NCBI GenBank assembly: GCA_964591795.1
Contig: CAZQEL010000014.1
Location: forward strand, 1-26,112
From: an uncultured archaeon
Lineage (GTDB): Archaea > Iainarchaeota > Iainarchaeia > Iainarchaeales > CSSED10-239
Reading direction: 5' to 3'
DNA length: 26,112 nt
Within the stretch, counting starts at the first letter, position 1. Every line of letters begins with the position of its first letter. Positions 4,721 through 25,920 of this stretch are shown here, one piece after another. The notes beneath the pieces were generated by a model. That model searched no databases and was not told the origin of the DNA. It saw nothing but the letters and a program-made list of their open reading frames with translations. A program made the translations under genes and the position numbers.

Positions 4721-5620
4721 CTATTTTTTAAATCTATTTTTAATTACTTTTCTTGCTTTTTTATCTTGTGTTAATTTTTTCATATTATGTTTAAAATTAG
4801 TAATATTTGTTTTAACTTTTTTATTTGAATATGCCATTAAACTAGTTTTAATTTTAGATCCAACTTCAAACACATTATAGAATTCATTATAACTCGGATT
4901 TTTAGCTATCTTTTTTTGCAAATCAGAAAAGCTAATAAAGATATAATCAGATAGACCTGATGATGCTTTTTTAACAGAATGTGTAATTTTACCCTTTACA
5001 TTCTCTGAATTAATAACATAAACATCTAAAGTTTTTGGTTCCATACCTAAAATATTTGTTCCAATCTTTCCATATTTATTATAACCAGAATTACTTTTAA
5101 CTATTAAATTAACATTTTTACTTTTAAATTTGGCTTTTATAAACTTAAAAGCACCAGAAGATATGGCTCTTAGAAAACCATCATAGGTTTTATCACATAC
5201 TGATGAAAATTTTTTGAAAAAAACTTTATTTGTAATTACTCCATTTTTAATTCTTAAAACATCAATTAAAGGATTAAACTTAGGATTTATTTTTTTATTA
5301 AAAGATGCAAGTTCTAAAAATAATTCTAACTGAGAAATATTCAAAGTAGATAACTCCTTTTTAAGTTTTAAATTAAACTCTTCACTATAGTTATTTAATA
5401 AATTTAAATAATCATTTAAAACAGATATTGAAATTCCCTGTTTAAAACTCACCTTTTTTGAATAATGAGAAAAAATAATATCTAAATGAGGTAAAATACT
5501 ATTTTTACAAAAATCAACATTATGTTTTGATACGAATAAATCACATTCATTATTAGCATTAGGAATTATAGAAATTGAATTATCTTCTTTTGAGCTTGCG
5601 TGTAAATAATAATTAATCAT
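4721..5620 (-). CDS. Hypothetical protein (299 aa) with a lysine-rich C-terminal tail
   Basis: Long uninterrupted ORF with an ATG start, 14 nt downstream of cmk on the same strand. I recognise no motif. Confidence 0.55.
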   Translation of the reverse strand: MINYYLHASSKEDNSISIIPNANNECDLFVSKHNVDFCKNSILPHLDIIFSHYSKKVSFKQGISISVLNDYLNLLNNYSEEFNLKLKKELSTLNISQLELFLELASFNKKINPKFNPLIDVLRIKNGVITNKVFFKKFSSVCDKTYDGFLRAISSGAFKFIKAKFKSKNVNLIVKSNSGYNKYGKIGTNILGMEPKTLDVYVINSENVKGKITHSVKKASSGLSDYIFISFSDLQKKIAKNPSYNEFYNVFEVGSKIKTSLMAYSNKKVKTNITNFKHNMKKLTQDKKARKVIKNRFKK

Positions 5621-5634
5621 ATTTTTTTCAAAAA

Positions 5635-6204
5635 TTATAGTTTATTTTTAATAAAAGCTAAAGTACATTCAAATACTTCTTGCATATTCAAATTAGTTGT
5701 ATCTAAAACATAATCAAAAACAGATAAATCCTTACCAAAATCAAAACCATAAATTGCTCTATAATGGGTTATATTAAAATTATCTTTTTTATTCAAATGT
5801 TTTAGTGCTTCATTATAAGTCATTACATCTCTTTTAGACATCCTATCTACTCTAACTTTTTTTGTAGCATTAAGCCAAATTTTAATAACACCTTTTTTCT
5901 TTTTCAAAAGATAGGGTAGAGTTGATGAATCTAAAATTAAATTGGTATTTTTATTTACTAAAGATAATAAATATTTATCTAAATTTTTATCAAAAGAAAA
6001 ATCGTTTTTTCTAAGTTCAATTAAATTTGACCTTTCATACCAACCTTTATTCATTTTAGTTTTAATACTAATTTGAGTTTTATTAGTAGTAAATTGTTTT
6101 AAAATATCTGATGTATAAACAATTTTATACTTAAGTTTTTTTGAAACAAACCTAGCCACATAGCTTTTTCCTGAAGCTGAATACCCACAAATTAATATTA
6201 TCAT
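5635..6204 (-). CDS. cmk: Cytidylate kinase, archaeal type (P-loop NMP kinase)
   Basis: Walker A at the N-terminus (MIILICGYSASGKS). The C-terminal half, IWLNATKKVRVDRMSKRD...YRAIYGFDFGKDLSVFDYVLDTT, matches the archaeal Cmk pattern (IW..AP.EVRA.R...R...Y...Y.ID..D.S.YDLVIDT). Confidence 0.7.
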   Translation of the reverse strand: MIILICGYSASGKSYVARFVSKKLKYKIVYTSDILKQFTTNKTQISIKTKMNKGWYERSNLIELRKNDFSFDKNLDKYLLSLVNKNTNLILDSSTLPYLLKKKKGVIKIWLNATKKVRVDRMSKRDVMTYNEALKHLNKKDNFNITHYRAIYGFDFGKDLSVFDYVLDTTNLNMQEVFECTLAFIKNKL

Positions 6205-6306
6205 ATATTATCAAATAAATATAAAGATAAAAAGATTTATAAACTAATATATTAGTATATTTATATTTACTTCAATCTGGGACAAAAATATGGAGCGGAA
6301 TACAAC

Positions 6307-6723
6307 ATGGTAAATTATAAAGATTCTTTAAATAATTTTAAAAAAATTGGAAAAATAAACACTGCTTGTGAAGAATTACACATAACAAAAGCTTTTTCTA
6401 TTAAATTAATTAAAAAAATATTAGGTAGATGTAAAAGATTAAAAATAATCACATTATCTAAATCTACAAAAAATAGAATGGGAATTAAGACAAAAAGCTT
6501 ATTAAGAAGTAAAAAAATTGGGTTACAAATTAAAAATGAACAAGGAAGACCAATTGATATTACTGCAAGTAAGATTAAAAAAATATTTGAAATGCATAAA
6601 GATTTTTCATACAGAGAGCTTGAAGAAAAATTAAAAGTTCCTAAAAGTACAATACACTATTTAATAAAAAAAGCAAAGAAAAAAAAAATAAAAAAAGGAA
6701 ACAAGATTATTTATTTAAAATAA
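6307..6723 (+). CDS. Small lysine-rich protein with a resolvase-like HTH
   Basis: FSYRELEEKLKVPKSTIHYLIKKAKK resembles an HTH_7/resolvase-type helix-turn-helix. A second HTH-like stretch lies near the N-terminus (INTACEELHITKAFSIKLIKK). It is a stand-alone gene on the opposite strand to its neighbours. Confidence 0.5.
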   Translation: MVNYKDSLNNFKKIGKINTACEELHITKAFSIKLIKKILGRCKRLKIITLSKSTKNRMGIKTKSLLRSKKIGLQIKNEQGRPIDITASKIKKIFEMHKDFSYRELEEKLKVPKSTIHYLIKKAKKKKIKKGNKIIYLK

Positions 6724-6743
6724 TCTTCTATTTTAGTTAAAAA

Positions 6744-7097
6744 TTAAGCAATACCTTCAACACTAGGATCTTCTTTAACTGGAGAAGGTTCTTTTTTTGT
6801 TTCTTTTGAAAGTTCATTTAATCTTTTAACAGTATCGCTTTCTTGTTTTTCAACAGTTTTAAGTCTTAATTCAACAGTTTCTTTTGTTTCTTTTGTTTGT
6901 TTTAAAACGTCAGACTTATCTGAAAGAATAAACACATTACCAACACCTTTGTAAACTCTTGTTTCTTTTGTATTTTCAAGTTCTTTTAATGTATTTTCTA
7001 AAACAGTAACTTGAACATTTAATTGTTGTTTTTGTTGAGATAAATACATTAATTGTTGTCTATATGTGTTTATCATTGTTGCATTTTTATCACTCAT
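6744..7097 (-). CDS. pfdB: Prefoldin beta subunit
   Basis: 117 aa in coiled-coil / beta-hairpin / coiled-coil order (…VYKGVGNVFI…). It occupies the terminal position of the exosome superoperon. ATGA overlap with Pcc1. Confidence 0.85.
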   Translation of the reverse strand: MSDKNATMINTYRQQLMYLSQQKQQLNVQVTVLENTLKELENTKETRVYKGVGNVFILSDKSDVLKQTKETKETVELRLKTVEKQESDTVKRLNELSKETKKEPSPVKEDPSVEGIA

Positions 7098-7324
7098 AGT
7101 TCCACCTCATAAATTTTAGATATTAGTTCTAAAAGATTTATATAATTATTAACTGTCGCTTTAAAGGCAATTAAATCTTTAGCATAAATTTCAATAACTA
7201 ATATTGAATCTTTAATATATATTTTTGAATCAGACCTATTATATTTCTTTCTATCCATTTCAAGATCTAAAAGTTTCTTTAAGTTTAAAGGATTACTTGA
7301 TTTAATTTCAAGTTTAGTTGACAT
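7094..7324 (-). CDS. pcc1: KEOPS subunit Pcc1 (CTAG/Pcc1 family)
   Basis: ~76 aa. DLIAFKATVNNYINLLELISKI matches the Pcc1 signature (DL.ALRA.LNSYLR.L). The track start at 7339 is a TTG, so I prefer the ATG at 7324. The position between Brix and prefoldin beta is conserved. Confidence 0.75.
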   Translation of the reverse strand: MSTKLEIKSSNPLNLKKLLDLEMDRKKYNRSDSKIYIKDSILVIEIYAKDLIAFKATVNNYINLLELISKIYEVEL

Positions 7325-7331
7325 TAATTCT

Positions 7332-7802
7332 TTAATCAAATTTAGTCACAGTTAAAATTTTAAATTTAAAACCCAAATAAAATTCATCTTCTAAAAAAGA
7401 ATAAATATTTTCATCAGACAAAAACAATTGGTATTTAGCTTTTGCAGAAATATTTTTTTTTGGTAGAAAATAAAATACTTTTTTATTATCCAAAATTAAA
7501 TTATTAATAGATTTAATATATGAAAAATATTTTAAGTGTCTTAAATCAATAATTTCAATTAAATATTCTCTATCTAAAAAAAAATTATTTTCCCTAAAAA
7601 CATACATTGATAAAATAACATTTCTTTGATTAAAAGATGATTCAAGAAAATATTGATGTCCAAAATATTTTGCTTTTTCAAAAAATTTAAACAGAGGAGT
7701 TTTACCTCTCGGAATAAAATTAACCCCTGGTAAATATTTCGAAAGATATTTTGAAAATCTTTTTGATAAAATATTTGATTTTCTCGAAGTTGTTATAAAC
7801 AT
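7332..7802 (-). CDS. Brix-domain (Imp4-like) ribosome biogenesis protein
   Basis: The N-terminus MFITTSRKSN...RF...L...IPRGK matches the archaeal Brix consensus (M.ITTSRKPS.R.R.F...L....RGK). Size and superoperon position fit. Confidence 0.8.
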   Translation of the reverse strand: MFITTSRKSNILSKRFSKYLSKYLPGVNFIPRGKTPLFKFFEKAKYFGHQYFLESSFNQRNVILSMYVFRENNFFLDREYLIEIIDLRHLKYFSYIKSINNLILDNKKVFYFLPKKNISAKAKYQLFLSDENIYSFLEDEFYLGFKFKILTVTKFD

Positions 7803-7804
7803 AT

Positions 7805-7933
7805 TTAGTAAGCTTTTATTTTCTTTGAGACAGGTTCTCTTTTTTTATAAAAAATTCTAGAATTACAAATACCACATTTATCATTTTCTGGAATTTCTGG
7901 GTACTCTGTCTTACATCTTGCACAATAATACAT
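7805..7933 (-). CDS. rpoP: DNA-directed RNA polymerase subunit P (Rpo12)
   Basis: 42 aa, below the ORF-track cutoff: MYYCARCKTEYPEIPENDKCGICNSRIFYKKREPVSKKIKAY. Two CxxC pairs and the C..C..RI..K.R pattern. The slot between L37ae and Brix is conserved. Confidence 0.75.
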   Translation of the reverse strand: MYYCARCKTEYPEIPENDKCGICNSRIFYKKREPVSKKIKAY

Positions 7934-7945
7934 TATTTTTCACCT

Positions 7946-8170
7946 TTATTTTTTTGAAGAAAGATTGTATGCAGCTCCAGCGATTTGAGTTTTACATTTT
8001 GAGCATTTATAAATTGCAGAATCTTTTTTAGTTATTTTTCCTTTATATCCACAATTAGGACATACATAAGATGCTTTATCAGTTTTAGTTGCCAAAAGAT
8101 ATTTTTGTCTAATACCTCTTCCAGCTCTAACACCAAATTTACCGGTTTCTTTTACTTTTTTTGTTGCCAT
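7946..8170 (-). CDS. rpl37ae: Ribosomal protein L37ae (eL43)
   Basis: MATKKVKETGKFGVRAGRGIRQK...CPNCG...CSKC...AGAAY. The track start at 8176 is a TTG; the ATG at 8170 follows a GTGAT box. Confidence 0.92.
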   Translation of the reverse strand: MATKKVKETGKFGVRAGRGIRQKYLLATKTDKASYVCPNCGYKGKITKKDSAIYKCSKCKTQIAGAAYNLSSKK

Positions 8171-8192
8171 CTTCAATCACGTTTAAATTTTT

Positions 8193-8987
8193 TTATTTTA
8201 ATTCCTCTATTTTTTTAACCATTTCATTATATTTTTTAACAGAAATATCAATCATTGTAAAGATTTCTTTTTCAGAAAAAACACCACCTTTACTTTTTTG
8301 ACAAGAAACAATTTTATCTTTTGTAAGACCAATACTAAATCTTGCATCAGATGCAAATTCTTCATCTTCAGTAGGATCTATTATAATTTTATTTTCTATC
8401 TTTTCAAAAGTTATACTTAATGGAAGATTTAAAAGTTCAATTTTTTTATCACTATATTCATTTGAAATTATTTTAAAATTTTTATCAATCTTTGGAATTC
8501 GTGCATTTTTAATTGCAGCAAGTGCAGCAATTTCAGTTGCATCAATTAAATTACCATCGGCATTAATTGCAATACAATCAATAAACATTATTAAAACTTT
8601 TTCACCAGGAACTATTGAAAGTTTTTTAAAATCAATACATTCAGCAGATCTTATTGCTCTATCTGCAACTCTACCATATTCTACTGCTTCAATTTTTGGA
8701 GGACCTGTTGAAAAATCAGGTGAAGAAAGACCAGTTAATTCTAAATTAATACTCATACTACCTTCATTAGGTGAGTCTGGATATGGAGTTCCTACTATAA
8801 ACTTGATTCCAGCAACAATTTCTGTATTACCAAGTTTAACCCAAGCAGAACCATCAGCAGAATTAATTACAGAAGTTTTAATTTCTAAATTTCTAAATTC
8901 ATCAAAACCTCTACTGCCTTCTCTTTTACCATTTTTTATACTTTGTTTTATACTACTTGCATTTATTAAGTTTAAAACTTTACTCAT
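8193..8987 (-). CDS. rrp42: Exosome complex component Rrp42 (inactive RNase PH-like subunit)
   Basis: RNase PH fold pattern (REGSRGFDEFRNLEIK...ADGSAWVKLGNTEIVAGIK). Follows rrp41. GGTGAT at 8998..8993 with a 5-nt spacer supports the ATG at 8987 rather than 8999. Confidence 0.88.
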   Translation of the reverse strand: MSKVLNLINASSIKQSIKNGKREGSRGFDEFRNLEIKTSVINSADGSAWVKLGNTEIVAGIKFIVGTPYPDSPNEGSMSINLELTGLSSPDFSTGPPKIEAVEYGRVADRAIRSAECIDFKKLSIVPGEKVLIMFIDCIAINADGNLIDATEIAALAAIKNARIPKIDKNFKIISNEYSDKKIELLNLPLSITFEKIENKIIIDPTEDEEFASDARFSIGLTKDKIVSCQKSKGGVFSEKEIFTMIDISVKKYNEMVKKIEELK

Positions 8988-12411: not shown

Positions 12412-12765
12412 TTATTTTAAAGATTTAAGAGTTGAAGCTTCTTTTAAAATAGATATAAGTCCAAAATCATCTTTTAAAAAGAATAAAGAAGATAAAAATA
12501 AACTTCTATAATTATTATTAATCCTAATTACTACTGTTTTATTTTCAAAATTAAAATCCATAACTGTTAAATTACATTCAATTAATGAAAATAAACCATG
12601 TATTTTTTCAAAATTTTTTAAAAATAAAGAATATATTTTTGTGTTTAAACTAAGTTCTTTTGTAAAGGTAAGTAAAAAATATCTTTTTCTATGCCTTAAA
12701 GTTGGCCTTATAACATTTAATTTTTTTTTAATCTTACTCATATTTATCAATAATCTAAATTTCAT
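12412..12765 (-). CDS. rnp2: RNase P protein component 2 (Pop5/Rpp14)
   Basis: IRPTLRHRKRYFLLTF matches the Pop5 N-terminal motif (LPPTLR.K.RYI.FE). Size and position next to psmA and Rpp30 fit. The start is either the ATG at 12765 (ATGA overlap with the upstream gene) or the ATG at 12741 (MSKIKKK). Confidence 0.75.
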   Translation of the reverse strand: MKFRLLINMSKIKKKLNVIRPTLRHRKRYFLLTFTKELSLNTKIYSLFLKNFEKIHGLFSLIECNLTVMDFNFENKTVVIRINNNYRSLFLSSLFFLKDDFGLISILKEASTLKSLK

Positions 12766-13385
12766 TCATTTTTTAATATATCTTTATCTAAAACTCTATT
12801 AATTAAAGATTCTTCAAAAATATAATTTTTAAGCATACAAAATAAAATATCTCTTGGAACCAAATCAGTTGTTGTTTTTGCAAAACTTGCAAAAATCATA
12901 TCCACTTTATGTTCTTTTAAAATATTTGTAATAAATAAAGTTTGTTTAATTGATTGATTTCTAAAATGGTTACACCTTAATAAATTAAAATTAAAAACAA
13001 CTTTTATTTTATTATGAAGACAAGACCTTGCATTTTGTTCATCAAAACTAAGTTTGTCAGAAATTGGATCTTTTAAAAAGTTTATTTTTTTATTTGTAGA
13101 TATATAAGTATTATTTTTTAAAGATTTAGATTCAACTAAAATTAGATCATTTCCTTTGTATAAGTGATAAATAGTAGGGTCCTTTAAAAGAAAAGCACGC
13201 TTGTAAATTACATTTTTTGAAGGCGAAGAAGGAACAATGAATTCATCATTAAAATCTTTTTTGGATTTAATCTCTCTTAATACATAAACAACATTTATTT
13301 TAAAAGAATTAAATATATCTGTAATTACATCAATAGGATAATTCTCAATTAAATTATCCATTACAAAATCAAAACTTTTTTTCAT
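12762..13385 (-). CDS. rnp3: Probable RNase P protein component 3 (Rpp30), highly diverged
   Basis: The call rests mainly on conserved synteny (Rpp30-Pop5-PsmA in archaeal superoperons) and on size (207 aa). I cannot pick out residue-level motifs by eye. Confidence 0.5.
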   Translation of the reverse strand: MKKSFDFVMDNLIENYPIDVITDIFNSFKINVVYVLREIKSKKDFNDEFIVPSSPSKNVIYKRAFLLKDPTIYHLYKGNDLILVESKSLKNNTYISTNKKINFLKDPISDKLSFDEQNARSCLHNKIKVVFNFNLLRCNHFRNQSIKQTLFITNILKEHKVDMIFASFAKTTTDLVPRDILFCMLKNYIFEESLINRVLDKDILKNE

Positions 13386-15301: not shown

Positions 15302-16924
15302 TTAATTTCCTTGTAAAGTTCCAGTTATTTTTGCATATTCAGCTTCAAGAATAGATAATTCATCAGCATATTTAACACTTATAACATCATAAACTGACTT
15401 AACTCCAATAACAGGATTTAACTCAAATATTTTTTTATGTGTTTTTAATGTTGCATTTTGAGCTTCAGCACATTTTAAAAAAAGTATTGGATATATTGAA
15501 AATACATCATTTGTAACTACTGGTTTAATAACTACACTTACTTTTCCGGTATCAACATAATCAGTATAAAATTGATTAGTTAAAGTTTCATTTTCTAATT
15601 TCAAACTATTAGGTTCATCATAATCAGTAAATAAAACCATTGATACTTTAGCATCAGAATCTCCAATAAAAATAGTGTTACTGTCAATAATTGATTTATA
15701 ATCAATTAACTTGTAAACCCCATTAATTGGTTGACCTAAATTAAATTGCAAAAGAACATCTTGTTTTATAACAAAACCATTATTAACTGGTTCTTTATTA
15801 AAAATTAAATTAAATACTGTTTTATCTGCATCTAAATTAAAATCTAAATAATTAATATCTCCAGTAAGATAAAAAGCAGGTAATGCATTTACATCTATTG
15901 TTTGAAGAATACTTTTTCCTTTTTCAGAATTATATTGAACATATTCTACAGATGCAGTTGTAAATGTTTCAGTGAAAATTTCTCTAACACTATCAACTAA
16001 TGTATCTGAATTTTTAAGATAGTCTATAAACTCTAAATTTGCGTTATTTATTAATTCATTATTAACATCATAAACAGCATATAATTTTAATGAATTAGAA
16101 TCAGATACAAATGATTTATTTGTATAGTCTAAAACTAAGCTATCTGTGTTATCTACTGCAGATATAAAATTTGTAACTGTGTTATAATCATTAAAACCTA
16201 ATAATGAATAACCATTTACAAAAAGTGTTGGAGTTTGAGAAACATATAATGATTGTGAAAGAATAAAATCTCTTTGAATTGAACTAACTTCTTTAAAATC
16301 AAACATATTTGCATCTTTTTGAAGATATTTGTTACTTACAAGACAACTATTCATTTGTTCTTCATTAAGATTCAAATCAAAATATGCATTTGATAAAATA
16401 TTTTGTTGATAATCTTTCATATCATTTAATATGTTTAAATTTAATTCCAAAGCTCTAGCTTGAAAATCGTCTACATTAATATCTGACACATTAGTATCAG
16501 TAAAATTATTATCTACAATAACTGTGTTTAAATTATTATCAGTATTATTAACTATAGAGTTAGGATCATTTGCAGGAATTAAAAAAGAAACAACTACAAT
16601 TGCAACTATTAAAAATAATAAAATCCCAATAATTAAAAAATCTTTAGATTTTTTTCTTACTTTTGTTTTATGTTCTTTATGTTTATGAGTTTTTGAAACT
16701 TTAACAACATGAGAAACAGGTTTATGCTTTTTGTTAATAGTTGATTTTTTAGAATGTACTATAAATTTGTTTTTTTTAACAACCTTTTTAATAATTGGTT
16801 TTTTAGAATGCACTATAGGTTTGTTTTTTTTAACAACCTTTTTTGAATCTCCAAAAACAACTTCTATTTTTTTAGAATTTTTTTTTGAAGTAATTTTTTT
16901 AGAAACTTTTTTTTTCACTGCCAA
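15302..16924 (-). CDS. Single-pass membrane protein with a Lys-rich repetitive cytoplasmic tail and an extracytoplasmic region of cysteine-less DsbA/thioredoxin-like modules
   Basis: Starts at a TTG 5 nt downstream of a perfect GGTGAT. There is no ATG before the TM segment. TM helix at residues 96-116 (FLIIGILLFLIVAIVVVSFLI). SQTPTLFVNGYSLLG and AKVSMVLFTDYDEPNS...YVDTGKVSVV...LKCAEAQN resemble DsbA-family segments, but the CxxC is replaced by EPNS. Confidence 0.65.
   Translation of the reverse strand: MAVKKKVSKKITSKKNSKKIEVVFGDSKKVVKKNKPIVHSKKPIIKKVVKKNKFIVHSKKSTINKKHKPVSHVVKVSKTHKHKEHKTKVRKKSKDFLIIGILLFLIVAIVVVSFLIPANDPNSIVNNTDNNLNTVIVDNNFTDTNVSDINVDDFQARALELNLNILNDMKDYQQNILSNAYFDLNLNEEQMNSCLVSNKYLQKDANMFDFKEVSSIQRDFILSQSLYVSQTPTLFVNGYSLLGFNDYNTVTNFISAVDNTDSLVLDYTNKSFVSDSNSLKLYAVYDVNNELINNANLEFIDYLKNSDTLVDSVREIFTETFTTASVEYVQYNSEKGKSILQTIDVNALPAFYLTGDINYLDFNLDADKTVFNLIFNKEPVNNGFVIKQDVLLQFNLGQPINGVYKLIDYKSIIDSNTIFIGDSDAKVSMVLFTDYDEPNSLKLENETLTNQFYTDYVDTGKVSVVIKPVVTNDVFSIYPILFLKCAEAQNATLKTHKKIFELNPVIGVKSVYDVISVKYADELSILEAEYAKITGTLQGN
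16745..16852 (-). repeat. Tandem direct repeat, 2 x 54 nt, inside the CDS
   Basis: Unit 16745..16798 is close to unit 16799..16852, with a few mismatches. They encode KKVVKKNKPIVHSKKPII and KKVVKKNKFIVHSKKSTI. Confidence 0.85.
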
Positions 16925-16966: not shown

Positions 16967-17986
16967 ATGTTTTTAAATACTACCAAAAATAACATAATTA
17001 TGGATACTGAAAATAAAATAATTACAAAAGAAGAAATATTTAAAGATTTAAAACATAAACACTATGGAATATATGGTAATCACTCAGCAGTTGAAATTTG
17101 TAGTTGGAATAAAAAAGCGCTTATTGGCGAAGGAGTTTGTTATAAAGAAAAATTTTATAACGTAGATTGTCATAGATGTGCACAAATAACACCAACAGCA
17201 ATTGTATGTCATCTTAATTGTAGTTTTTGTTGGAGGCCAACAGCATACATGAAAGATTGGACTATGACTGGCACAATTGATGAACCAGATGATATTATTG
17301 AAGGATTATTTAAAGAAAGAAAAAAATTATTAACTGGATTTAAAGGTAATGATAAAGTAGATATTAAAAAATATGAAGAAGCAATAGTTCCATCACATGT
17401 TGCAATATCATTATCAGGAGAACCTACCATTTACCCAAAACTTGCAGAAATGGTTCTTTATCTTAAGAAAAAAAAAGAAATGAGAAGTATATTTATTGTA
17501 ACAAATGGAATGGAACCAGATAGACTTGAAGAATTACAAAATAAAAATGCACTTCCAACACAATTATATTTATCAATAATTGGAGCAACAAAAGAAATGC
17601 AGTTAAAAATAAATAGACCCAAAATAGAAGATAGTTGGGAAAGATTAAATAAAACAATTGATTTATATCCATCACTAAATTGTAGAAGAATAATTAGATT
17701 CACATTAATAAAAGGACTTAATGATTCAAAAGAAGCTATTGAAAAATTTATAAAAATGTTTGAAAAAAGTAACACTGATTTTTTAGAAATTAAATCATAC
17801 ATGCATCTTGGTGCATCCAGAGACAATTTAACTAGAGAAAATATGCCTACACATAAAGAAGTTTTAGATTACTCACAAGAAATTGAAAAAAACTCTAAAC
17901 TTTTTAAAATTCACAATGAACAAAAAGAATCAAAAATAGTTCTTTTAAAAAATATTAATAGTAAATATAAAGATTTTATAAAATAA
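16967..17986 (+). CDS. taw1: tRNA 4-demethylwyosine synthase Taw1/TYW1 (radical SAM)
   Basis: Radical-SAM CxxxCxxC (CHLNCSFCWRP, 17207..17230). Upstream auxiliary-cluster cysteines (EICSW, GVCYKEKFY, CHRC), AISLSGEPT and FLEIKSYMH all follow the archaeal Taw1 pattern. An alternative start is the ATG at 17000. Confidence 0.9.
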   Translation: MFLNTTKNNIIMDTENKIITKEEIFKDLKHKHYGIYGNHSAVEICSWNKKALIGEGVCYKEKFYNVDCHRCAQITPTAIVCHLNCSFCWRPTAYMKDWTMTGTIDEPDDIIEGLFKERKKLLTGFKGNDKVDIKKYEEAIVPSHVAISLSGEPTIYPKLAEMVLYLKKKKEMRSIFIVTNGMEPDRLEELQNKNALPTQLYLSIIGATKEMQLKINRPKIEDSWERLNKTIDLYPSLNCRRIIRFTLIKGLNDSKEAIEKFIKMFEKSNTDFLEIKSYMHLGASRDNLTRENMPTHKEVLDYSQEIEKNSKLFKIHNEQKESKIVLLKNINSKYKDFIK

Positions 17987-18001: not shown

Positions 18002-18868
18002 ATGGAAGATAACCAAGAATTAATTAAAATATTAAAAACAATAAATAAAGAAAAAACAATTTGTCTTTTAGCCCCAAGTTTTGTAGTTGATTTTAAATAT
18101 CCAAAAATTATTATTGAACTTAGAAGAATTGGATTAAAAAAAATAGTAGAATTAACCTATTCGGCTAAATTAATTAGCAAAGAAATACATTCTGAAATTA
18201 TAAAAAACAAAAAAAAACAATATATCTGTGCAAACTGCCCTAGTGTTGTAAAATATATAGAAAATAAATATCCAAACATTAAAAAAAAAATAATGGATAT
18301 AGCATCACCCATGGTACTTATGGGTAGATTTATGAAACAAAAATACCCTAAATATAAAGTACTCTTTATAGGTCCATGTATTTCAAAAAAACAAGAAGCA
18401 AAAGAAAACCCAGAAGTTGATTTTGCAATTACTTTTAAAGAAACATTAGATATAATACAATATGCAAAAAAGAACGGACTTTACATAAAAAAAGAAAATG
18501 AAAAAAAACAATTTGATCAATTATATAATGATTATACAAAAATATATCCTTTATCCGGTGCAGTTGCAGAAACAATAAACAATCGAGAAATACTTTCTTA
18601 CGATGAAATTATTGTAGCAGATGGAATCTTAGAAATAGATAGGGCAATACTAAAATTTAAAAATAATAAAAAAATTAGATTTTTAGATATGCTATTCTGT
18701 AAAGGTGGTTGTGTAGGTGGTCCTGGCATAATTTCAACAGAAACATTGGATCAAAAAGAAGACCGTGTAATACATTATAGAGACAAATCCAAAAAAGAAA
18801 AATTAGGTAAACATCTTGGTAAATTTAAATATGCAGGAGACCTAAATCTAAAAAGAAAAAAAAGTTAA
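18002..18868 (+). CDS. Minimal [FeFe]-hydrogenase H-domain-like protein (Fe_hyd_lg_C-like), with no N-terminal ferredoxin domains
   Basis: By-eye alignment to the HydA H-domain finds four motifs. LLAPSF matches the APS motif. ICANCPSV matches TSCCP (C79 kept; the first Cys is Asn78). IGPCISKKQEA matches MPC..KK.EA (C126). DMLFCKGGCVGGPG matches E.M.C.GGC..G.G (C233, C237). It lies 15 nt downstream of taw1. Confidence 0.8.
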   Translation: MEDNQELIKILKTINKEKTICLLAPSFVVDFKYPKIIIELRRIGLKKIVELTYSAKLISKEIHSEIIKNKKKQYICANCPSVVKYIENKYPNIKKKIMDIASPMVLMGRFMKQKYPKYKVLFIGPCISKKQEAKENPEVDFAITFKETLDIIQYAKKNGLYIKKENEKKQFDQLYNDYTKIYPLSGAVAETINNREILSYDEIIVADGILEIDRAILKFKNNKKIRFLDMLFCKGGCVGGPGIISTETLDQKEDRVIHYRDKSKKEKLGKHLGKFKYAGDLNLKRKKS

Positions 18869-19281
18869 ATTTCAAAAAGATATGTTTTTGGAAAAATAGG
18901 TTTTTTTTTAAGAATATCTTTTGCAACTTCTTTTAAAAGATTTAAACCTAAAAAAGCACACCTAATTCTTGTTTGTAAAACCCCACCTAAATTATCAGTA
19001 ATTAATTTATCATCAAAGAATAATATTTGATCTAAAGACTTATTTTCTAAAAGCTCAGTTAAAACACACATACCTGCTTTTGAAATTACACATCCTGAAT
19101 GTTCAAAACTAATTTTTTTAATAACAAAATCAGTAGATAATTTTAAATAAATTGAAACAATATCAGTACAATTTTTATTTTTACCAATTATTTTTATATC
19201 AAATGGTTTTAGCACACCATAATTAACTGGATTTGTGTAATAATCTAAAATAATTTGAGATGGAATATAATCTTCGGTCAT
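18865..19281 (-). CDS. sufU: SufU/IscU-like Fe-S cluster assembly protein
   Basis: ILDYYTNPVNYG, NCTD (compare CGD), SGCVIS and TRIRCAFL give three conserved Cys plus Asp. Arg rather than His precedes the last Cys, which is SufU-like. ATGA overlap with sufD. Confidence 0.75.
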   Translation of the reverse strand: MTEDYIPSQIILDYYTNPVNYGVLKPFDIKIIGKNKNCTDIVSIYLKLSTDFVIKKISFEHSGCVISKAGMCVLTELLENKSLDQILFFDDKLITDNLGGVLQTRIRCAFLGLNLLKEVAKDILKKKPIFPKTYLFEI

Positions 19282-20159
19282 AATTTACTCTTAATTTTAG
19301 CTAAAATATAACTTTTTATAAATTCAGAATAACTAGATATATTTGCAGTAAGAAAAGAAGTTAAAATTAATTTATTTGCATGCTTTTCAGATAAACCTCT
19401 AGATCCTAAATAAAATAATTCATCTAAAGTTACTTGCTCAACTGTTGCTGCATGAGTTGCCACAACATTCTTTGGAACAATTTCAAGCATTGGAATATTT
19501 ATGGATTTAGTGTTCTTTGATAAAAACATTGTGTTTGTTTCAAGATAGGCTTTTGAAAAATCAGCTTTTTTTAAAATATTAATAAGTCCATCATACCTAA
19601 CAAAAGAAAAATCTTTTAAAACATTTTTAATACTTGTGTTTGATACTATTTCTTTTGATAAATGAGTATTTATTATACTTATATTATTTTTTTGCTGTTT
19701 AGATAATAACAAAATATCATTCTCAGAAAAATTAGATTTGTTTACTAAAAAATTTTCTTGAAAATAAGTTAAATCATTAGAATCTAAAAAAAGATTTGTA
19801 AAATTAATAGAAGATTTATCCACTATGACGTTATTTTTTGAAATTAAATTTTTCGATAAAATATTTTTTAAAAAAGTAATATTAGAAGAATTATAAAAAT
19901 AATAAACTATATTTTTATTTTTTAAAAAATTACTTTCTTCTATAACATTTAAGTCTTTACAATTTGAAAATATAATAATTGAATTATTTGTAACTTTATT
20001 TAAATTTAAATAAATGTTTTTTGATTTTAAAGATAAAAAATATACTGAATTATAATTTAGATTAAAATTTAATTTAGATAACATCAACTTATATTTATTT
20101 TTTAAATCACTAAAGTTTAATTTATAAAAACTTAAATTTAAATTATTTTTATTTACCAT
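19278..20159 (-). CDS. sufD: Fe-S cluster assembly protein SufD (short, diverged)
   Basis: The C-terminus ATHAATVEQVTLDELFYLGSRGLSEKHANKLILTSFL is the SufB/SufD signature. It sits after sufB. The N-terminal half is N/K/S-rich and diverged. Confidence 0.75.
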   Translation of the reverse strand: MVNKNNLNLSFYKLNFSDLKNKYKLMLSKLNFNLNYNSVYFLSLKSKNIYLNLNKVTNNSIIIFSNCKDLNVIEESNFLKNKNIVYYFYNSSNITFLKNILSKNLISKNNVIVDKSSINFTNLFLDSNDLTYFQENFLVNKSNFSENDILLLSKQQKNNISIINTHLSKEIVSNTSIKNVLKDFSFVRYDGLINILKKADFSKAYLETNTMFLSKNTKSINIPMLEIVPKNVVATHAATVEQVTLDELFYLGSRGLSEKHANKLILTSFLTANISSYSEFIKSYILAKIKSKL

Positions 20160-20165
20160 AAACTA

Positions 20166-21611
20166 TCAACCTACTGAATTTTCAAACTCCATTTCAATAA
20201 GTCTATTTAATTCAATAGCAAACTCTAAAGGAATTTGCTTAGAAAAATCACTAATAAACCCTAAAACAATTAATGTTATGGCCTTTGATTCCTCAATACC
20301 TCTTGACATTAAATAAAATAATTGCTCTTCACCTATTCTTCCAACTGTTGCTTCATGAGAAACTTCAGCGGTTGGTTCATCCACAATAATTACAGGATAA
20401 GTATCAGTTTTACTTTTTGAATCCATTAAAATTGCATCACATTTAACATTTGATTTAATATTTTTTAATCCTTTAGATATTTTTACTATTCCTCTATATG
20501 CAGAAACACCGCCATCCTTAGAAATTGATTTTGAAACTATAATACCTGTAGTATTATTGGCTTCATGAATTATTTTTGCACCAGCATCCTGTTTTTGTCC
20601 TTTTGATGCAATGGCAATTGATAATACTTCACCTCTTGCGCCTTCTTCTTTTAAATAAATTGCAGGATACTTCATAGTAAGCTTAGAACCTAAATTTCCA
20701 TCAACCCACTCAACAGTTGCATTCTTATAAGCAAAAGCCCTTTTAGTTACAAGATTATAAATATTATTAGCCCAATTTTGAATAGTTGAATACCTTATGG
20801 TAGATCCTTCTAAAGCAATAACCTCAACAACTGCAACATGAAGTGATTGAGAAGAATATCTTGGAGCAGTACATCCTTCAATATAATGAATTTTACTGTT
20901 TTTTCCCGCAATAATTAATGTTCTTTCAAATTGTCCCATATTTGATGAATTTATTCTAAAGTACGCCTGTAAAGGAATATCAACTTGAACATTTTCTGGA
21001 ACATAAACAAAAGAACCGCCAGACCAAACTGCTGAATTTAAACTTGCAAACTTATTATCATCAAAAGGAACAATTGATCCAAAATATTTTTTAACAAGCT
21101 CAGGATATTGTTTAAGGCCTTCATCCATAGATAAAAAAATTACTCCCCTATCAGCAAATTCTTTTTTAGTTTTATGATAAACTACTTCAGAATCATATTG
21201 TGCACCAACACCTGCTAAAAACTTTTGTTCAGCTTTAGGAATACCAATTCTATCAAATGTTTTTTTAACAGAACTAGGAACCTCTTTCCAATCTTTTCTT
21301 TCCTTTGAATCAATTGACGCAAAATAAGTTATGCTATTATAATTAATTTCATTTAAAGCACCAATGCCCCACATAGGCGTTTTCTTCTTTAAAAATACCT
21401 TATAACTTTTTAATCTAAAATCAAGCATCCACTTAGGTTCTTTTTTATATTTTGATATTTTTCTAATAACTTCTTCTGATAAACCCCTATTAAACTTAAC
21501 ATTATAATTGTCTGTAGAGTATAGAAAATTATACTTTTCAATCTTTGTTGCTGTTTTAATTTTTTTAAAAGAATTTTTGTTGATTGTTCCTTTAGTTTTA
21601 TTTCTATTCAT
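20166..21611 (-). CDS. sufB: Fe-S cluster assembly scaffold SufB
   Basis: Full-length SufB pattern: GVIFLSMDEGLKQYPELVKKYFG, NSAVWSGGSFVYVP, HEATVGRIGEEQLFYLMSRGI. Confidence 0.95.
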   Translation of the reverse strand: MNRNKTKGTINKNSFKKIKTATKIEKYNFLYSTDNYNVKFNRGLSEEVIRKISKYKKEPKWMLDFRLKSYKVFLKKKTPMWGIGALNEINYNSITYFASIDSKERKDWKEVPSSVKKTFDRIGIPKAEQKFLAGVGAQYDSEVVYHKTKKEFADRGVIFLSMDEGLKQYPELVKKYFGSIVPFDDNKFASLNSAVWSGGSFVYVPENVQVDIPLQAYFRINSSNMGQFERTLIIAGKNSKIHYIEGCTAPRYSSQSLHVAVVEVIALEGSTIRYSTIQNWANNIYNLVTKRAFAYKNATVEWVDGNLGSKLTMKYPAIYLKEEGARGEVLSIAIASKGQKQDAGAKIIHEANNTTGIIVSKSISKDGGVSAYRGIVKISKGLKNIKSNVKCDAILMDSKSKTDTYPVIIVDEPTAEVSHEATVGRIGEEQLFYLMSRGIEESKAITLIVLGFISDFSKQIPLEFAIELNRLIEMEFENSVG

Positions 21612-21613
21612 AA

Positions 21614-22384
21614 CTATTTTTTAAATTGTTTTTTATAATCATTAATTATTTTTGTAAAACCATGTTTTTCAATATAATTAGCAAAAGTATGATTACCACT
21701 TTTAATTATTTTGCCATCATACATTACATGAACAAAATCTGGTTTTAAAAAGTCTAATATTTTTTTATAATGAGTTATTATTATTGCAGAAAATTCTTTT
21801 TTTTCTTTTTTCAAACTAGATATAGATTTACAAACAAGTTTTAAAGAATCAATGTCAAGCCCAGAATCAGTTTCATCAAGAATTGCTAATGATGGGGTTA
21901 ACAAATTCATTTGTAAAATTTCAGCTCTTTTTTTCTCACCACCAGAAAAACCAACATTTAAATCTCTAGATAAAAATGAATCTTCAATATTAAGAGTCTT
22001 TGTTTTTTCTTTAACAAGCATATTAAATTTTAAAGCAGTAATATTTTTATTATGAGTATTTGTATAACTATTTTTTAAAAAAGAAAAATAATTAAGACCA
22101 GATATTTCTAAAGGAGTTTGAAAAGATAAGAAAATACCTAATTTTGCTCGCTTATCAGGAGATAATAATAAAATATTTTTATTTTTAAAAATAATTTTGC
22201 CTGAAATCACATTATATTTAGGATGACCCATAATAGTATAAGCTAAAGTTGATTTGCCTGAACCATTAGGACCCATAATTGCATGAATTTCTTGATTTTT
22301 AATTTTCAAAGAAAATTTAGATAATATTTTTTTATTTTCAACATTTACAGATAAATTAGTAATACTTAATATTGGTTTAGTCAT
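21614..22384 (-). CDS. sufC: Fe-S cluster assembly ATPase SufC
   Basis: Walker A GPNGSGKST, ABC signature FSGGEKKR, Walker B LAILDETDSGLD. GTGAT SD. First gene of sufCBDU. Confidence 0.95.
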   Translation of the reverse strand: MTKPILSITNLSVNVENKKILSKFSLKIKNQEIHAIMGPNGSGKSTLAYTIMGHPKYNVISGKIIFKNKNILLLSPDKRAKLGIFLSFQTPLEISGLNYFSFLKNSYTNTHNKNITALKFNMLVKEKTKTLNIEDSFLSRDLNVGFSGGEKKRAEILQMNLLTPSLAILDETDSGLDIDSLKLVCKSISSLKKEKKEFSAIIITHYKKILDFLKPDFVHVMYDGKIIKSGNHTFANYIEKHGFTKIINDYKKQFKK

Positions 22385-23772: not shown

Positions 23773-25920
23773 ATGTTTGAAACTAATGTAAAATGGGTAA
23801 AAGAAATTTCAGATCACGAGATCTTAGATGTTGGATATAAAGCATACATATTATCAGAACTTTCAAAAGCAAACATATCAATCCCAAGAGGATTTGTCAT
23901 AAACTACAAGAACTTTTTTAATTTTTTACAAACTGGTAATTTAAGAGAAAAAATTAATGATATTTTAAAAACAATAGATTATACAAATAAAGAAGATATT
24001 AAAAGTAAATCCAACCAAATACAAGCACTTTTTTTAAAAGCAAAATTTGATGATGATTTTACATCTAATGTGCTTAAAATGTATACAAAAGTTGGAGAGA
24101 CAAAAATTGGTTTCATTAATAGTAAAGTAGATGAGTATATAGCAGTAAGAATTTCAATCTCAAGTGAAGAATATCCTTTAAAGGAACTTGATTTTATAGA
24201 AAAAAATATTGGTTTTTTAAATATAAAAGGAAGAGAAAATGTATTAAATAGTGTTAAAGAATGCTGGGCAGATCTTTATAGTCCAGATATATTAGAATAC
24301 AAATTCAAAAAAGGATTTGAAGAAAATAAAATACATTTATCAGTAATTATTCAAAAAATGATACCCGGTAAAAAATCAGGAATCATGTTAACATCTAAAG
24401 AAGACAATAAAGAAATTACAGTAATTGAAGCAATACACGGTTTTGGTGGAAAAAGTCTAATTAAAGAAGTTACACCTGATCATTATGAATTAAATAAAAA
24501 AACATTTACAACTATTAAAAAAACAAAATCAAACCAAGAATGGATGCTTAAAAGAATAATAGGTAAAACTACAAAAGCAAACATTGATCCTAAAGAAAAT
24601 GAAAAATTCAAACTTGATCAAAGAGATTTAAATGAACTAATTCAAATTGGCCATAAACTTGAAATGATATATGGAACTGTATTGGAAGTTAATTGGGTTA
24701 TTGATTCTAATGATGAAATATTTATAGTAAGTGTATTACCTGTTGATTTAAATCTTAAAAAAATTAAAAAAAGTAAAACAATTGATGCAACAACCTATCA
24801 AGAAAAAATGGACACTTTTAAAAAAGAATTAATTTTAGAAGGAATTGGTGTATCAACTGGAATTGCAATAGGTACAGTAAAAATAGTAAACACAAAAGAA
24901 GACTTAAAACAAATTGATGAAAATACAATCTTAGTGACAAAAATGACAAGTCTTGAAATGTCTCAAACACTTAGAAAAGCAAAAGGAATTGTAACCGATG
25001 CCGGAAGTACTATTTGCCACGCTGCTTTAATATCTAAAAAATATGATGTTCCATGTGTAGTTCACACTGAACATGCAACTGAAAACTTAAAAGATGGCCA
25101 AGCAGTTTTAGTAAATGGTTTTAATGGAAGAATATACAGTGTTTCAGGATATATATCCCCACCTAAAATTAAAGCACCAGAAATAAAAAGAGAAAATGAA
25201 GTAGTTATTGAAAGACCTTTAAAAAAAGATCCAGATTATCCTAAAACAATTACACAAACTTTAATTAAAATATCTAATTTAGATGAAGTTAAAAAAATAA
25301 ATTTAGCTGATATTGATGGAATAGTTGTAACTATAGATAGCTTGTTTAATAGCTATCAAAAAGGAACAATGCTTGAAAATATAAGTTCATTAGTCCCTGC
25401 AATAAAACTAAAACTTAATTCTTTATTAAAAATATTTGAAGAAAAAAAAATCTATTATATAATAAACACACACACTAGAAATTTAATTACTGAAAACGTT
25501 TCCAGTTATGAAATTGAAGCAATCTTAGAACTTTCAGGAAAAATAAATATAATTTTAGAAAATATAAAATCACCAGATGAAATAATACCAATTAAAGAAA
25601 GTTCAGAAACAAAAATAGGTGTGATGATTGATTCATTAAAAGAAAACATGGTTAAAGAATACCTATCAAGAGGTGCTGAATTTATTATTTTTAATATTGA
25701 TGAAATTGATTTTATAAAAATAAAAGAAATTACTAACATCTGTAAGGAAAATAAAATACTTAGAATAGCAAGAATAAATTCCAAAAACACAATTACTGAT
25801 GTTAAAAAATATATTGATTCAGGTATAAATGGACTAATAATTAATAAAGAACAAATAGAATACAAAGATACAATTTATAAAAAAGAAAAAGATCTTTTAA
25901 GAAACCTTCTTTCAATTTAA
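23773..25920 (+). CDS. Phosphoenolpyruvate synthase-like PEP-utilising enzyme (pyruvate, water dikinase family) with an atypical C-terminal domain
   Basis: The N-terminal ATP-grasp follows the PpsA pattern (VGYKAY, IAVRISISSEE, ECWADLYSPDILEYKFKKGF, SVIIQKMIPGKKSGIMLT). The swivel domain has the phospho-His motif TDAGSTICHAALISKKYDVPCVV (His at 25018..25020). The last ~220 aa only loosely resemble the PEP/pyruvate-binding barrel. Confidence 0.8.
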   Translation: MFETNVKWVKEISDHEILDVGYKAYILSELSKANISIPRGFVINYKNFFNFLQTGNLREKINDILKTIDYTNKEDIKSKSNQIQALFLKAKFDDDFTSNVLKMYTKVGETKIGFINSKVDEYIAVRISISSEEYPLKELDFIEKNIGFLNIKGRENVLNSVKECWADLYSPDILEYKFKKGFEENKIHLSVIIQKMIPGKKSGIMLTSKEDNKEITVIEAIHGFGGKSLIKEVTPDHYELNKKTFTTIKKTKSNQEWMLKRIIGKTTKANIDPKENEKFKLDQRDLNELIQIGHKLEMIYGTVLEVNWVIDSNDEIFIVSVLPVDLNLKKIKKSKTIDATTYQEKMDTFKKELILEGIGVSTGIAIGTVKIVNTKEDLKQIDENTILVTKMTSLEMSQTLRKAKGIVTDAGSTICHAALISKKYDVPCVVHTEHATENLKDGQAVLVNGFNGRIYSVSGYISPPKIKAPEIKRENEVVIERPLKKDPDYPKTITQTLIKISNLDEVKKINLADIDGIVVTIDSLFNSYQKGTMLENISSLVPAIKLKLNSLLKIFEEKKIYYIINTHTRNLITENVSSYEIEAILELSGKINIILENIKSPDEIIPIKESSETKIGVMIDSLKENMVKEYLSRGAEFIIFNIDEIDFIKIKEITNICKENKILRIARINSKNTITDVKKYIDSGINGLIINKEQIEYKDTIYKKEKDLLRNLLSI

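Follow-up and report, generated by a model that had tools for sequence, protein, structure and literature searches.

The gene hydA, at positions 18002 to 18868 of a 26,112-nucleotide stretch of DNA from an uncultured archaeon (the whole of which is called here the window), is considered, with a probability of about 0.85, to encode an ultraminimal [FeFe] hydrogenase of group E, orthologous to the enzyme Fm of Ca. Forterrea multitransposorum and working as a bare H-domain fed by ferredoxin. By analogy with Fm, its product would most likely be a hydrogenase that reoxidises ferredoxin and evolves H2.

Group E was defined by Greening et al. in 2024 (Cell), who described ultraminimal [FeFe] hydrogenases with a mean length of 286 aa in DPANN archaea, found them in 30 genomes, placed them as the sister group of group C and reported that their proton-transfer residues differ from those of canonical enzymes (PMC11216029). 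Fm, purified from Ca. Forterrea multitransposorum, is a protein of 33 kDa that contains 4.2 Fe per protein, a value that fits one [4Fe-4S] cluster, and that gives sharp CO/CN infrared (FTIR) bands with synthetic [2Fe]adt, which it binds in a well-defined pocket and with which it turns over (PMC11216029). H2 production was recorded in lysates, and protein-film electrochemistry revealed a bidirectional enzyme with a bias towards proton reduction (PMC11216029). As one more orthologue of a class defined and characterised in 2024, hydA matters little alone; the interest of group E lies in its being the smallest known H2 catalyst, built via an alternative route that is free of HydEFG.

The hydA gene and the fold of its product

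18002..18868 (+): hydA, probable group E ultraminimal H-domain-only [FeFe] hydrogenase, 288 aa, 33.4 kDa (PF02906, AF2, Foldseek, Forterrea homologue)

Translation bears out the 288-residue frame proposed in an initial annotation of the window, which runs on the forward strand from an ATG at 18002 to a TAA at 18866-18868. With a GC content of about 24%, the window is rich in stop codons, and a long open frame would hardly arise in it by chance. Furthermore, contigs assembled from four other samples carry an identical copy of the gene in the same setting of neighbouring genes, which excludes an assembly artefact.

The product matches PF02906, the profile of the C-terminal (H) domain of the [FeFe]-hydrogenase large subunit, far beyond chance (E = 1.2e-40, 140 bits, profile positions 2-245 of 245), and a Pfam scan of its 288 residues returned no other domain. 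Since PF02906 is the sole Pfam domain, F-cluster domains are absent, as the initial annotation had claimed for the N-terminus. The best NCBIfam model is TIGR04105, monomeric [FeFe] hydrogenase (E = 6e-43), with a score below the full-length cutoff because only the C-terminal half of the model is matched, and a sequence search of solved structures retrieved [FeFe] hydrogenases only. The AF2 model, built from a 42-sequence family alignment, is a confident one (pLDDT 92.8, pTM 0.90). The best 50 matches listed by Foldseek against the PDB are all [FeFe]-hydrogenase H-domains, including those of CbA5H, CpI, HydABC and HDCR, with TM-scores, normalised to the query and describing the global fold, of 0.69-0.78. 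The profile search and the structure prediction, both suggested in advance as checks, agree in this way that the protein has a full-length profile match and the fold of the PF02906 H-domain superfamily.

Residues of the predicted H-cluster site

The following motifs would form the H-cluster site:

18071..18079 (+): A24-P25-S26 (APS) motif (translation and family conservation)
18227..18241 (+): L1 motif C76-A-N78-C79-P80, CANCP (alignment and translation)
18305..18313 (+): S102-P103-M104, aligned with CpI S323-P324-Q325, lining of the H-cluster pocket (alignment)
18371..18391 (+): L2 motif G124-P-C126-I-S-K129-K, GPCISKK (alignment and translation)
18692..18727 (+): L3 motif L231-F-C233-KGG-C237-VGGPG, LFCKGGCVGGPG (alignment and translation)

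The protein contains six cysteines in all (21, 76, 79, 126, 233 and 237) and thus no accessory cluster. In alignments with the CpI and HydA1 chains, C79 corresponds to CpI C300, a ligand of [4Fe-4S]H, C126 to C355, C233 to C499 and C237 to C503, the cysteine bridging to the 2Fe subcluster; K129 corresponds to K358. These four cysteines, the APS motif and the lysine of the PC..KK motif had already been recognised in the initial annotation, and alignment, translation and family conservation uphold them all. The APS motif we take to be the counterpart of CpI A230-S232, a contact to a CN ligand of the 2Fe subcluster; the alignments with CpI begin at residue 28.

The four cysteines, A24-P25, S102-P103 and K129 are invariant in the conservation alignment of 87 sequences, which comprises 79 short-family loci and 8 long relatives (87/87 for A24, P25, S102 and P103). 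M104 is kept in 86 of the 87, and S26 is Ser in 84 and Ala in the remaining 3.

The residues of proton transfer differ from those of CpI. N78 occupies the position of the proton-relay C299 of CpI, G124 replaces M353 and L231 replaces M497; the Asn at the relay cysteine and the Gly at the Met of MPC had been read correctly from the start. I62 and M98 stand at the positions of CpI E279 and S319, which means that the remaining canonical proton pathway is also absent, and position 65, that of the pathway residue E282, is unconserved. The protein lacks, then, the marks of prototypical group A, both the relay Cys299 of TSCCP with its E279/S319/E282 pathway and the Met353 and Met497 that flank the 2Fe subcluster. 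C76 is an extra cysteine specific to hydA's clade.

It can be proposed that Cys79, Cys126, Cys233 and Cys237 would hold the [4Fe-4S] part of the H-cluster, with Cys237 bridging to a 2Fe subcluster whose CN and CO ligands would be anchored by A24-P25-S26, S102-P103 and K129. Since accessory clusters are absent, electrons would have to enter directly at a surface-exposed [4Fe-4S]H. With Asn78 replacing the relay cysteine, Cys76 is a candidate member of the proton path.

Orthology with Fm and genomic context

16967..17986 (+): TYW1/Taw1, radical-SAM 4-demethylwyosine synthase (TIGR03972 at 355 bits, cutoff 318)
18865..22384 (-): sufC-sufB-sufD-sufU, Fe-S assembly operon, downstream of hydA and convergent with it, stop codons overlapping
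23773..25920 (+): PEP-utilising enzyme, PEP synthase or pyruvate-phosphate-dikinase-like (PF01326 and PF00391)

A homologue scan of one genome per GTDB species yielded 252 loci with a relative of hydA. One of them lies on the complete Forterrea chromosome CP045477.1, where it is the only homologue found, and encodes a protein of 286 aa and 33.5 kDa, in agreement with the 33 kDa reported for Fm. This protein has its six cysteines at the same positions as the hydA product, to which it is 78% identical, gap-free over 286 aa. Around the two genes, about 15 flanking genes are collinear, with products 43-86% identical; the set includes SBDS, PsmA, Pop5, ArgRS, a thioredoxin-domain protein, TYW1, hydA, the suf operon, RadA and the PEP-utilising enzyme. 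The gap-free identity and this collinearity identify hydA as orthologous to the gene of Fm, the enzyme characterised in a sister species. The first of the options raised in the initial annotation, an ultraminimal hydrogenase, is supported in this way, and its caution that the class might already be known from DPANN genomes was well founded, since group E was published in 2024 (PMC11216029).

The host is archaeal, as the window encodes proteasome alpha, exosome Rrp4/41/42, Pop5, SBDS, RadA and prefoldin, together with ArgRS; these markers and the synteny with Ca. Forterrea (Iainarchaeota/Diapherotrites) place hydA in a DPANN genome. The other features of group E are present too: an H-domain-only protein of about 286 aa (here 288, with six cysteines) without accessory Fe-S domains, the four cysteines that ligate the H-cluster, and a position in the clade of the defining members (Fm, Na), given by the identity to Fm and by the neighbour-joining (NJ) tree of the short family. 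By analogy, the hydA product would bind an H-cluster and turn over H2, as demonstrated for Fm only, after maturation with [2Fe]adt.

The genes immediately beside hydA in the window serve housekeeping or Fe-S functions and not fermentation. TYW1, the sole radical-SAM gene of the window, ends 15 nt upstream of hydA on the same strand, and both are probably co-transcribed. The junction, with gaps of -17 to +45 nt, is kept in 17 loci of the Forterrea clade; TYW1 is the context of hydA, a functional partnership between them being putative. The PEP-utilising enzyme gene is also syntenic in Forterrea-clade loci. The adjacency of the suf operon is limited to the four closest genomes (L001-L004), the other members of the clade having lost it, for which reason the operon was rejected as a dedicated maturation partner of hydA and its adjacency is regarded as incidental.

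Two other genes of the window deserve mention. That at 15302-16924 (-), divergent from TYW1 across a 42-nt spacer, encodes a protein of 540 aa in which no domain is recognisable except a DsbA-like thioredoxin domain (PF13462) at the C-terminus; its position is kept in the Forterrea clade, with an identity of only 26-48%. An unannotated 207-aa ORF adjoins the Pop5 gene with a 4-nt overlap (12762-13385 and 12412-12765, both on the minus strand) and is probably the Rpp30 subunit, given a weak match to RNase P p30 (PF01876, E = 0.002).

Distribution and phylogeny of the short family

When 1.84 billion cluster representatives were searched with a profile, the threshold of E <= 1e-3 was passed by 3513 matches and that of E <= 1e-30 by 255. 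About 30 clusters of 250-310 aa score at least about 195 bits, and below them come multidomain proteins of 480-1035 aa, with the H-domain at about residues 60-330, a pattern consistent with the published sister relationship to the sensory group C. Among the matches, P0126, a predicted protein of 4122 aa, contains 14 separate matches to the group E profile (322 bits), which a tandem array, a mis-assembly or a wrongly called gene might explain.

Among the best 80 of the 252 loci are 32 in which hydA contains 3-11 in-frame TGA codons. These codons fall at conserved Gly positions, rendered as "W" in database translations, which indicates genetic code 25 (Absconditabacteria/SR1, Gracilibacteria). 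Another 13 of the best 80 belong to Dojkabacteria, Saccharibacteria and Microgenomates. To judge from these sequences, a group-E-like hydrogenase of about 290 aa is common in CPR bacteria and is not archaeal only (loci L015-L048, L051 and L072, with hydA at about 8001-8870 in most of them). The relay cysteine is kept by no member of the short family, its lineages differing as follows:

Forterrea clade: relay position Asn (19/19), M353 position Gly
Code-25 CPR bacteria: relay position Asn (30/30), M353 position Gly
Code-11 CPR bacteria: relay position Pro, M353 position Gly
Nano-/Woesearchaeota: relay position Val, Thr, Ala or Pro, M353 position mostly Ser

In an NJ tree of the short family and the long relatives, the short family is monophyletic in 100 of 100 bootstraps, the Forterrea-clade archaea, including the hydA of the window, group with the code-25 CPR bacteria in 98, and the monophyly of all archaea is recovered in none. 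The CxNCP motif (C76 and N78) is exclusive to Forterrea-type and code-25 CPR proteins (L001-L048) and constitutes independent support for their grouping. This suggests a gene transfer between the domains, that is, between DPANN and CPR, with the caveat that NJ is a simple method and that both lineages are AT-rich, so that they may attract each other artificially.

The 2024 Cell paper makes no mention of CPR homologues and describes group E as archaeal (PMC11216029), and a limited literature search found no report of group-E-like hydrogenases in CPR/Patescibacteria, which is not proof of novelty. The abundance in CPR, the grouping of Forterrea with code-25 bacteria and the adjacency to radical-SAM genes described below may be new. 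Being widespread in CPR and DPANN, the family may be a common trait of ultra-small symbionts.

Maturation and the radical-SAM neighbourhood

No HydE, HydF or HydG was found among the window ORFs of at least 90 aa that were scanned (all minus four that overlap other called genes), in line with the initial annotation, and none was recognised in 80 related loci. The closed genome of Ca. Forterrea multitransposorum also lacks HydEFG, which led Greening et al. to postulate an alternative maturation pathway (PMC11216029). The possibility that TYW1 is a HydE or HydG in disguise was rejected as the primary reading, since its score exceeds the cutoff of the TYW1 equivalog and the wyosine domain is present.

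A radical-SAM gene directly adjoins hydA in 42 of 79 loci, from three lineages and with four families involved (TYW1, RimO, HemW and an unnamed radical-SAM protein). In the Forterrea clade TYW1 lies upstream of hydA; in code-25 CPR bacteria (L015-L044) the order is UvrB-RimO-HydA-HemW-NusA, with RimO at -1 and HemW at +1; and in two other archaea the unnamed radical-SAM protein is encoded downstream (L056, 8887-10008; L076, at +1). Among recurrent neighbour families, radical-SAM proteins account for 4 of 23 at positions +-1 and for 0 of 45 at +-2 to +-4 (Fisher p = 0.011, in a post hoc test that rests on three lineages).

This adjacency may only reflect the embedding of hydA among housekeeping genes, and at the same time it constitutes the best lead to an electron partner or a maturation route of hydA, the radical-SAM neighbours being candidates for whichever of these partners is missing. 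A functional coupling of the CxNCP-subclade hydrogenase to the adjoining radical-SAM enzymes (TYW1; RimO/HemW), in a subclade transferred between domains, is a long shot that could take two forms. The hydrogenase could act as an H2- or ferredoxin-linked supplier of low-potential electrons to radical-SAM enzymes in cells where other redox machinery is near-absent, or the adjoining enzymes could build the 2Fe subcluster in place of HydE and HydG, which are missing.

Assembly of the H-cluster of the hydA product in vivo is putative, the activity of Fm having been demonstrated only after artificial maturation, and because of this another reading has been retained, although we hold it to be unlikely. 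According to it, the hydA product never receives a 2Fe subcluster in vivo and is a small redox protein with a [4Fe-4S] cluster, serving for instance radical-SAM enzymes, TYW1 among them, as a low-potential electron donor or partner. The lack of HydE/F/G in the window and in the closed Forterrea genome, the absence of the relay cysteine throughout the short family and the radical-SAM gene beside hydA would all fit such a protein. However, the conservation of K129, A24-P25-S26, S102-P103 and the bridging C237 in its GGC context is sensible only for contacts to a 2Fe subcluster, Fm does accommodate [2Fe]adt in its pocket and turn over (PMC11216029), and the neighbour statistic, post hoc as it is, comes from few independent lineages in mostly housekeeping surroundings.

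Proposed physiological role

If the hydA product is a group E hydrogenase with a complete H-cluster, as favoured here, it can be inferred from its relatives which donor supplies the electrons and in which direction catalysis runs in vivo. Forterrea encodes PFOR and ferredoxin, and its only identified source of ATP is a RuBisCO-based nucleotide salvage that leads to pyruvate, acetyl-CoA and acetate (PMC5905446). In Woesearchaeota-type loci (L054, L061, L064, L075 and L080, at about 5600-8800), OFORalpha-OFORbeta-(histidine phosphatase)-hydA units end with hydA, and the start and stop codons of their genes overlap. The hydA of Saccharibacteria and Dojkabacteria shares 1 nt with a gene for a TadA-like deaminase and lies facing ACD-OFORbeta-OFORalpha. 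These three observations point to a fermentative role, in which the likely electron donor would be ferredoxin reduced by pyruvate/2-oxoacid:ferredoxin oxidoreductase. The electrons would leave as H2, whose release would keep running the only ATP-yielding route of the organism, from pyruvate through acetyl-CoA to acetate.

In the window itself there is no OFOR gene, and a six-frame scan for the ferredoxin motif CxxCxxCxxxC[PAG] gave no match. These absences weigh against the reading favoured here, as do the lack of HydE/F/G and that of the canonical proton relay. The PEP-utilising enzyme would belong to the PEP/pyruvate node, from which the predicted ferredoxin-reducing pathway is supplied.

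The opposite direction has also been taken into account. The hydA product could work mainly in uptake, passing electrons from environmental or host-derived H2 to ferredoxin for a reverse PFOR, for radical-SAM enzymes or for desulfoferrodoxin. Fm is bidirectional (PMC11216029), the ferredoxin and the desulfoferrodoxin of Forterrea are encoded with no known mechanism that reduces either of them (PMC5905446), and hydA adjoins radical-SAM genes. However, the catalytic bias of Fm lies towards proton reduction (PMC11216029) and the OFOR/ACD operon contexts of other lineages point to fermentation, so that a main function in uptake appears improbable, and H2 evolution is preferred.

Comparison with known systems

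Group C/D, to which T. maritima HydS belongs, is the sister group of group E, with 28% identity to Fm (PMC11216029). That the hydA product is an H2 sensor akin to these putative sensory enzymes is very improbable. In its favour are the sister relationship and the nearest relatives outside the family, the multidomain proteins of 480-1035 aa, which share with the hydA product the Gly at M353 and the Leu at M497 and usually lack the relay cysteine. Against it, these relatives are extended at the N-terminus and carry C-terminal domains, whereas the hydA product is a single H-domain of 288 aa that has neither an extra N-terminal cluster motif nor a C-terminal output domain such as PAS. Moreover, hydA has no linked regulator gene, and TmHydS prefers H2 oxidation while Fm prefers proton reduction (PMC11216029).

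For want of a signalling domain, the H2 or redox sensor put forward in the initial annotation is not favoured, and its third option, a Nar1-like maturation factor, fails on the missing N-terminal cysteine cluster; the conservation of the 2Fe-subcluster contacts in the 87 aligned sequences also tells against both. Nar1/NARFL proteins are eukaryotic CIA proteins of the PF02906 superfamily, present in organisms without HydE/F/G, with an N-terminal ferredoxin-like cysteine motif and no bound 2Fe subcluster. The hydA product, set apart from them by this description, comes from an archaeal genome, has only C21 on the N-terminal side of L1, where Nar1 has a four-cysteine motif, and conserves the 2Fe contacts.

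Chlamydomonas HydA1 and the archaeal group A1 enzymes (M1 type) resemble the hydA product in being H-domain only, without F-clusters, and in having the same four cysteines, the lysine and APS. They are longer, with 457 aa in HydA1 and a mean of 363 aa in group A1 (PMC11216029) as opposed to 288, and they keep TSCCP, M353, M497 and the Glu/Ser pathway where the hydA product has N78, G124, L231, I62 and M98.

Its closest counterpart is Fm. This enzyme comes from a different species; the two are of nearly equal length (286 and 288 aa) and have in common the CxNCP, GPC..KK and FC.GGC motifs.
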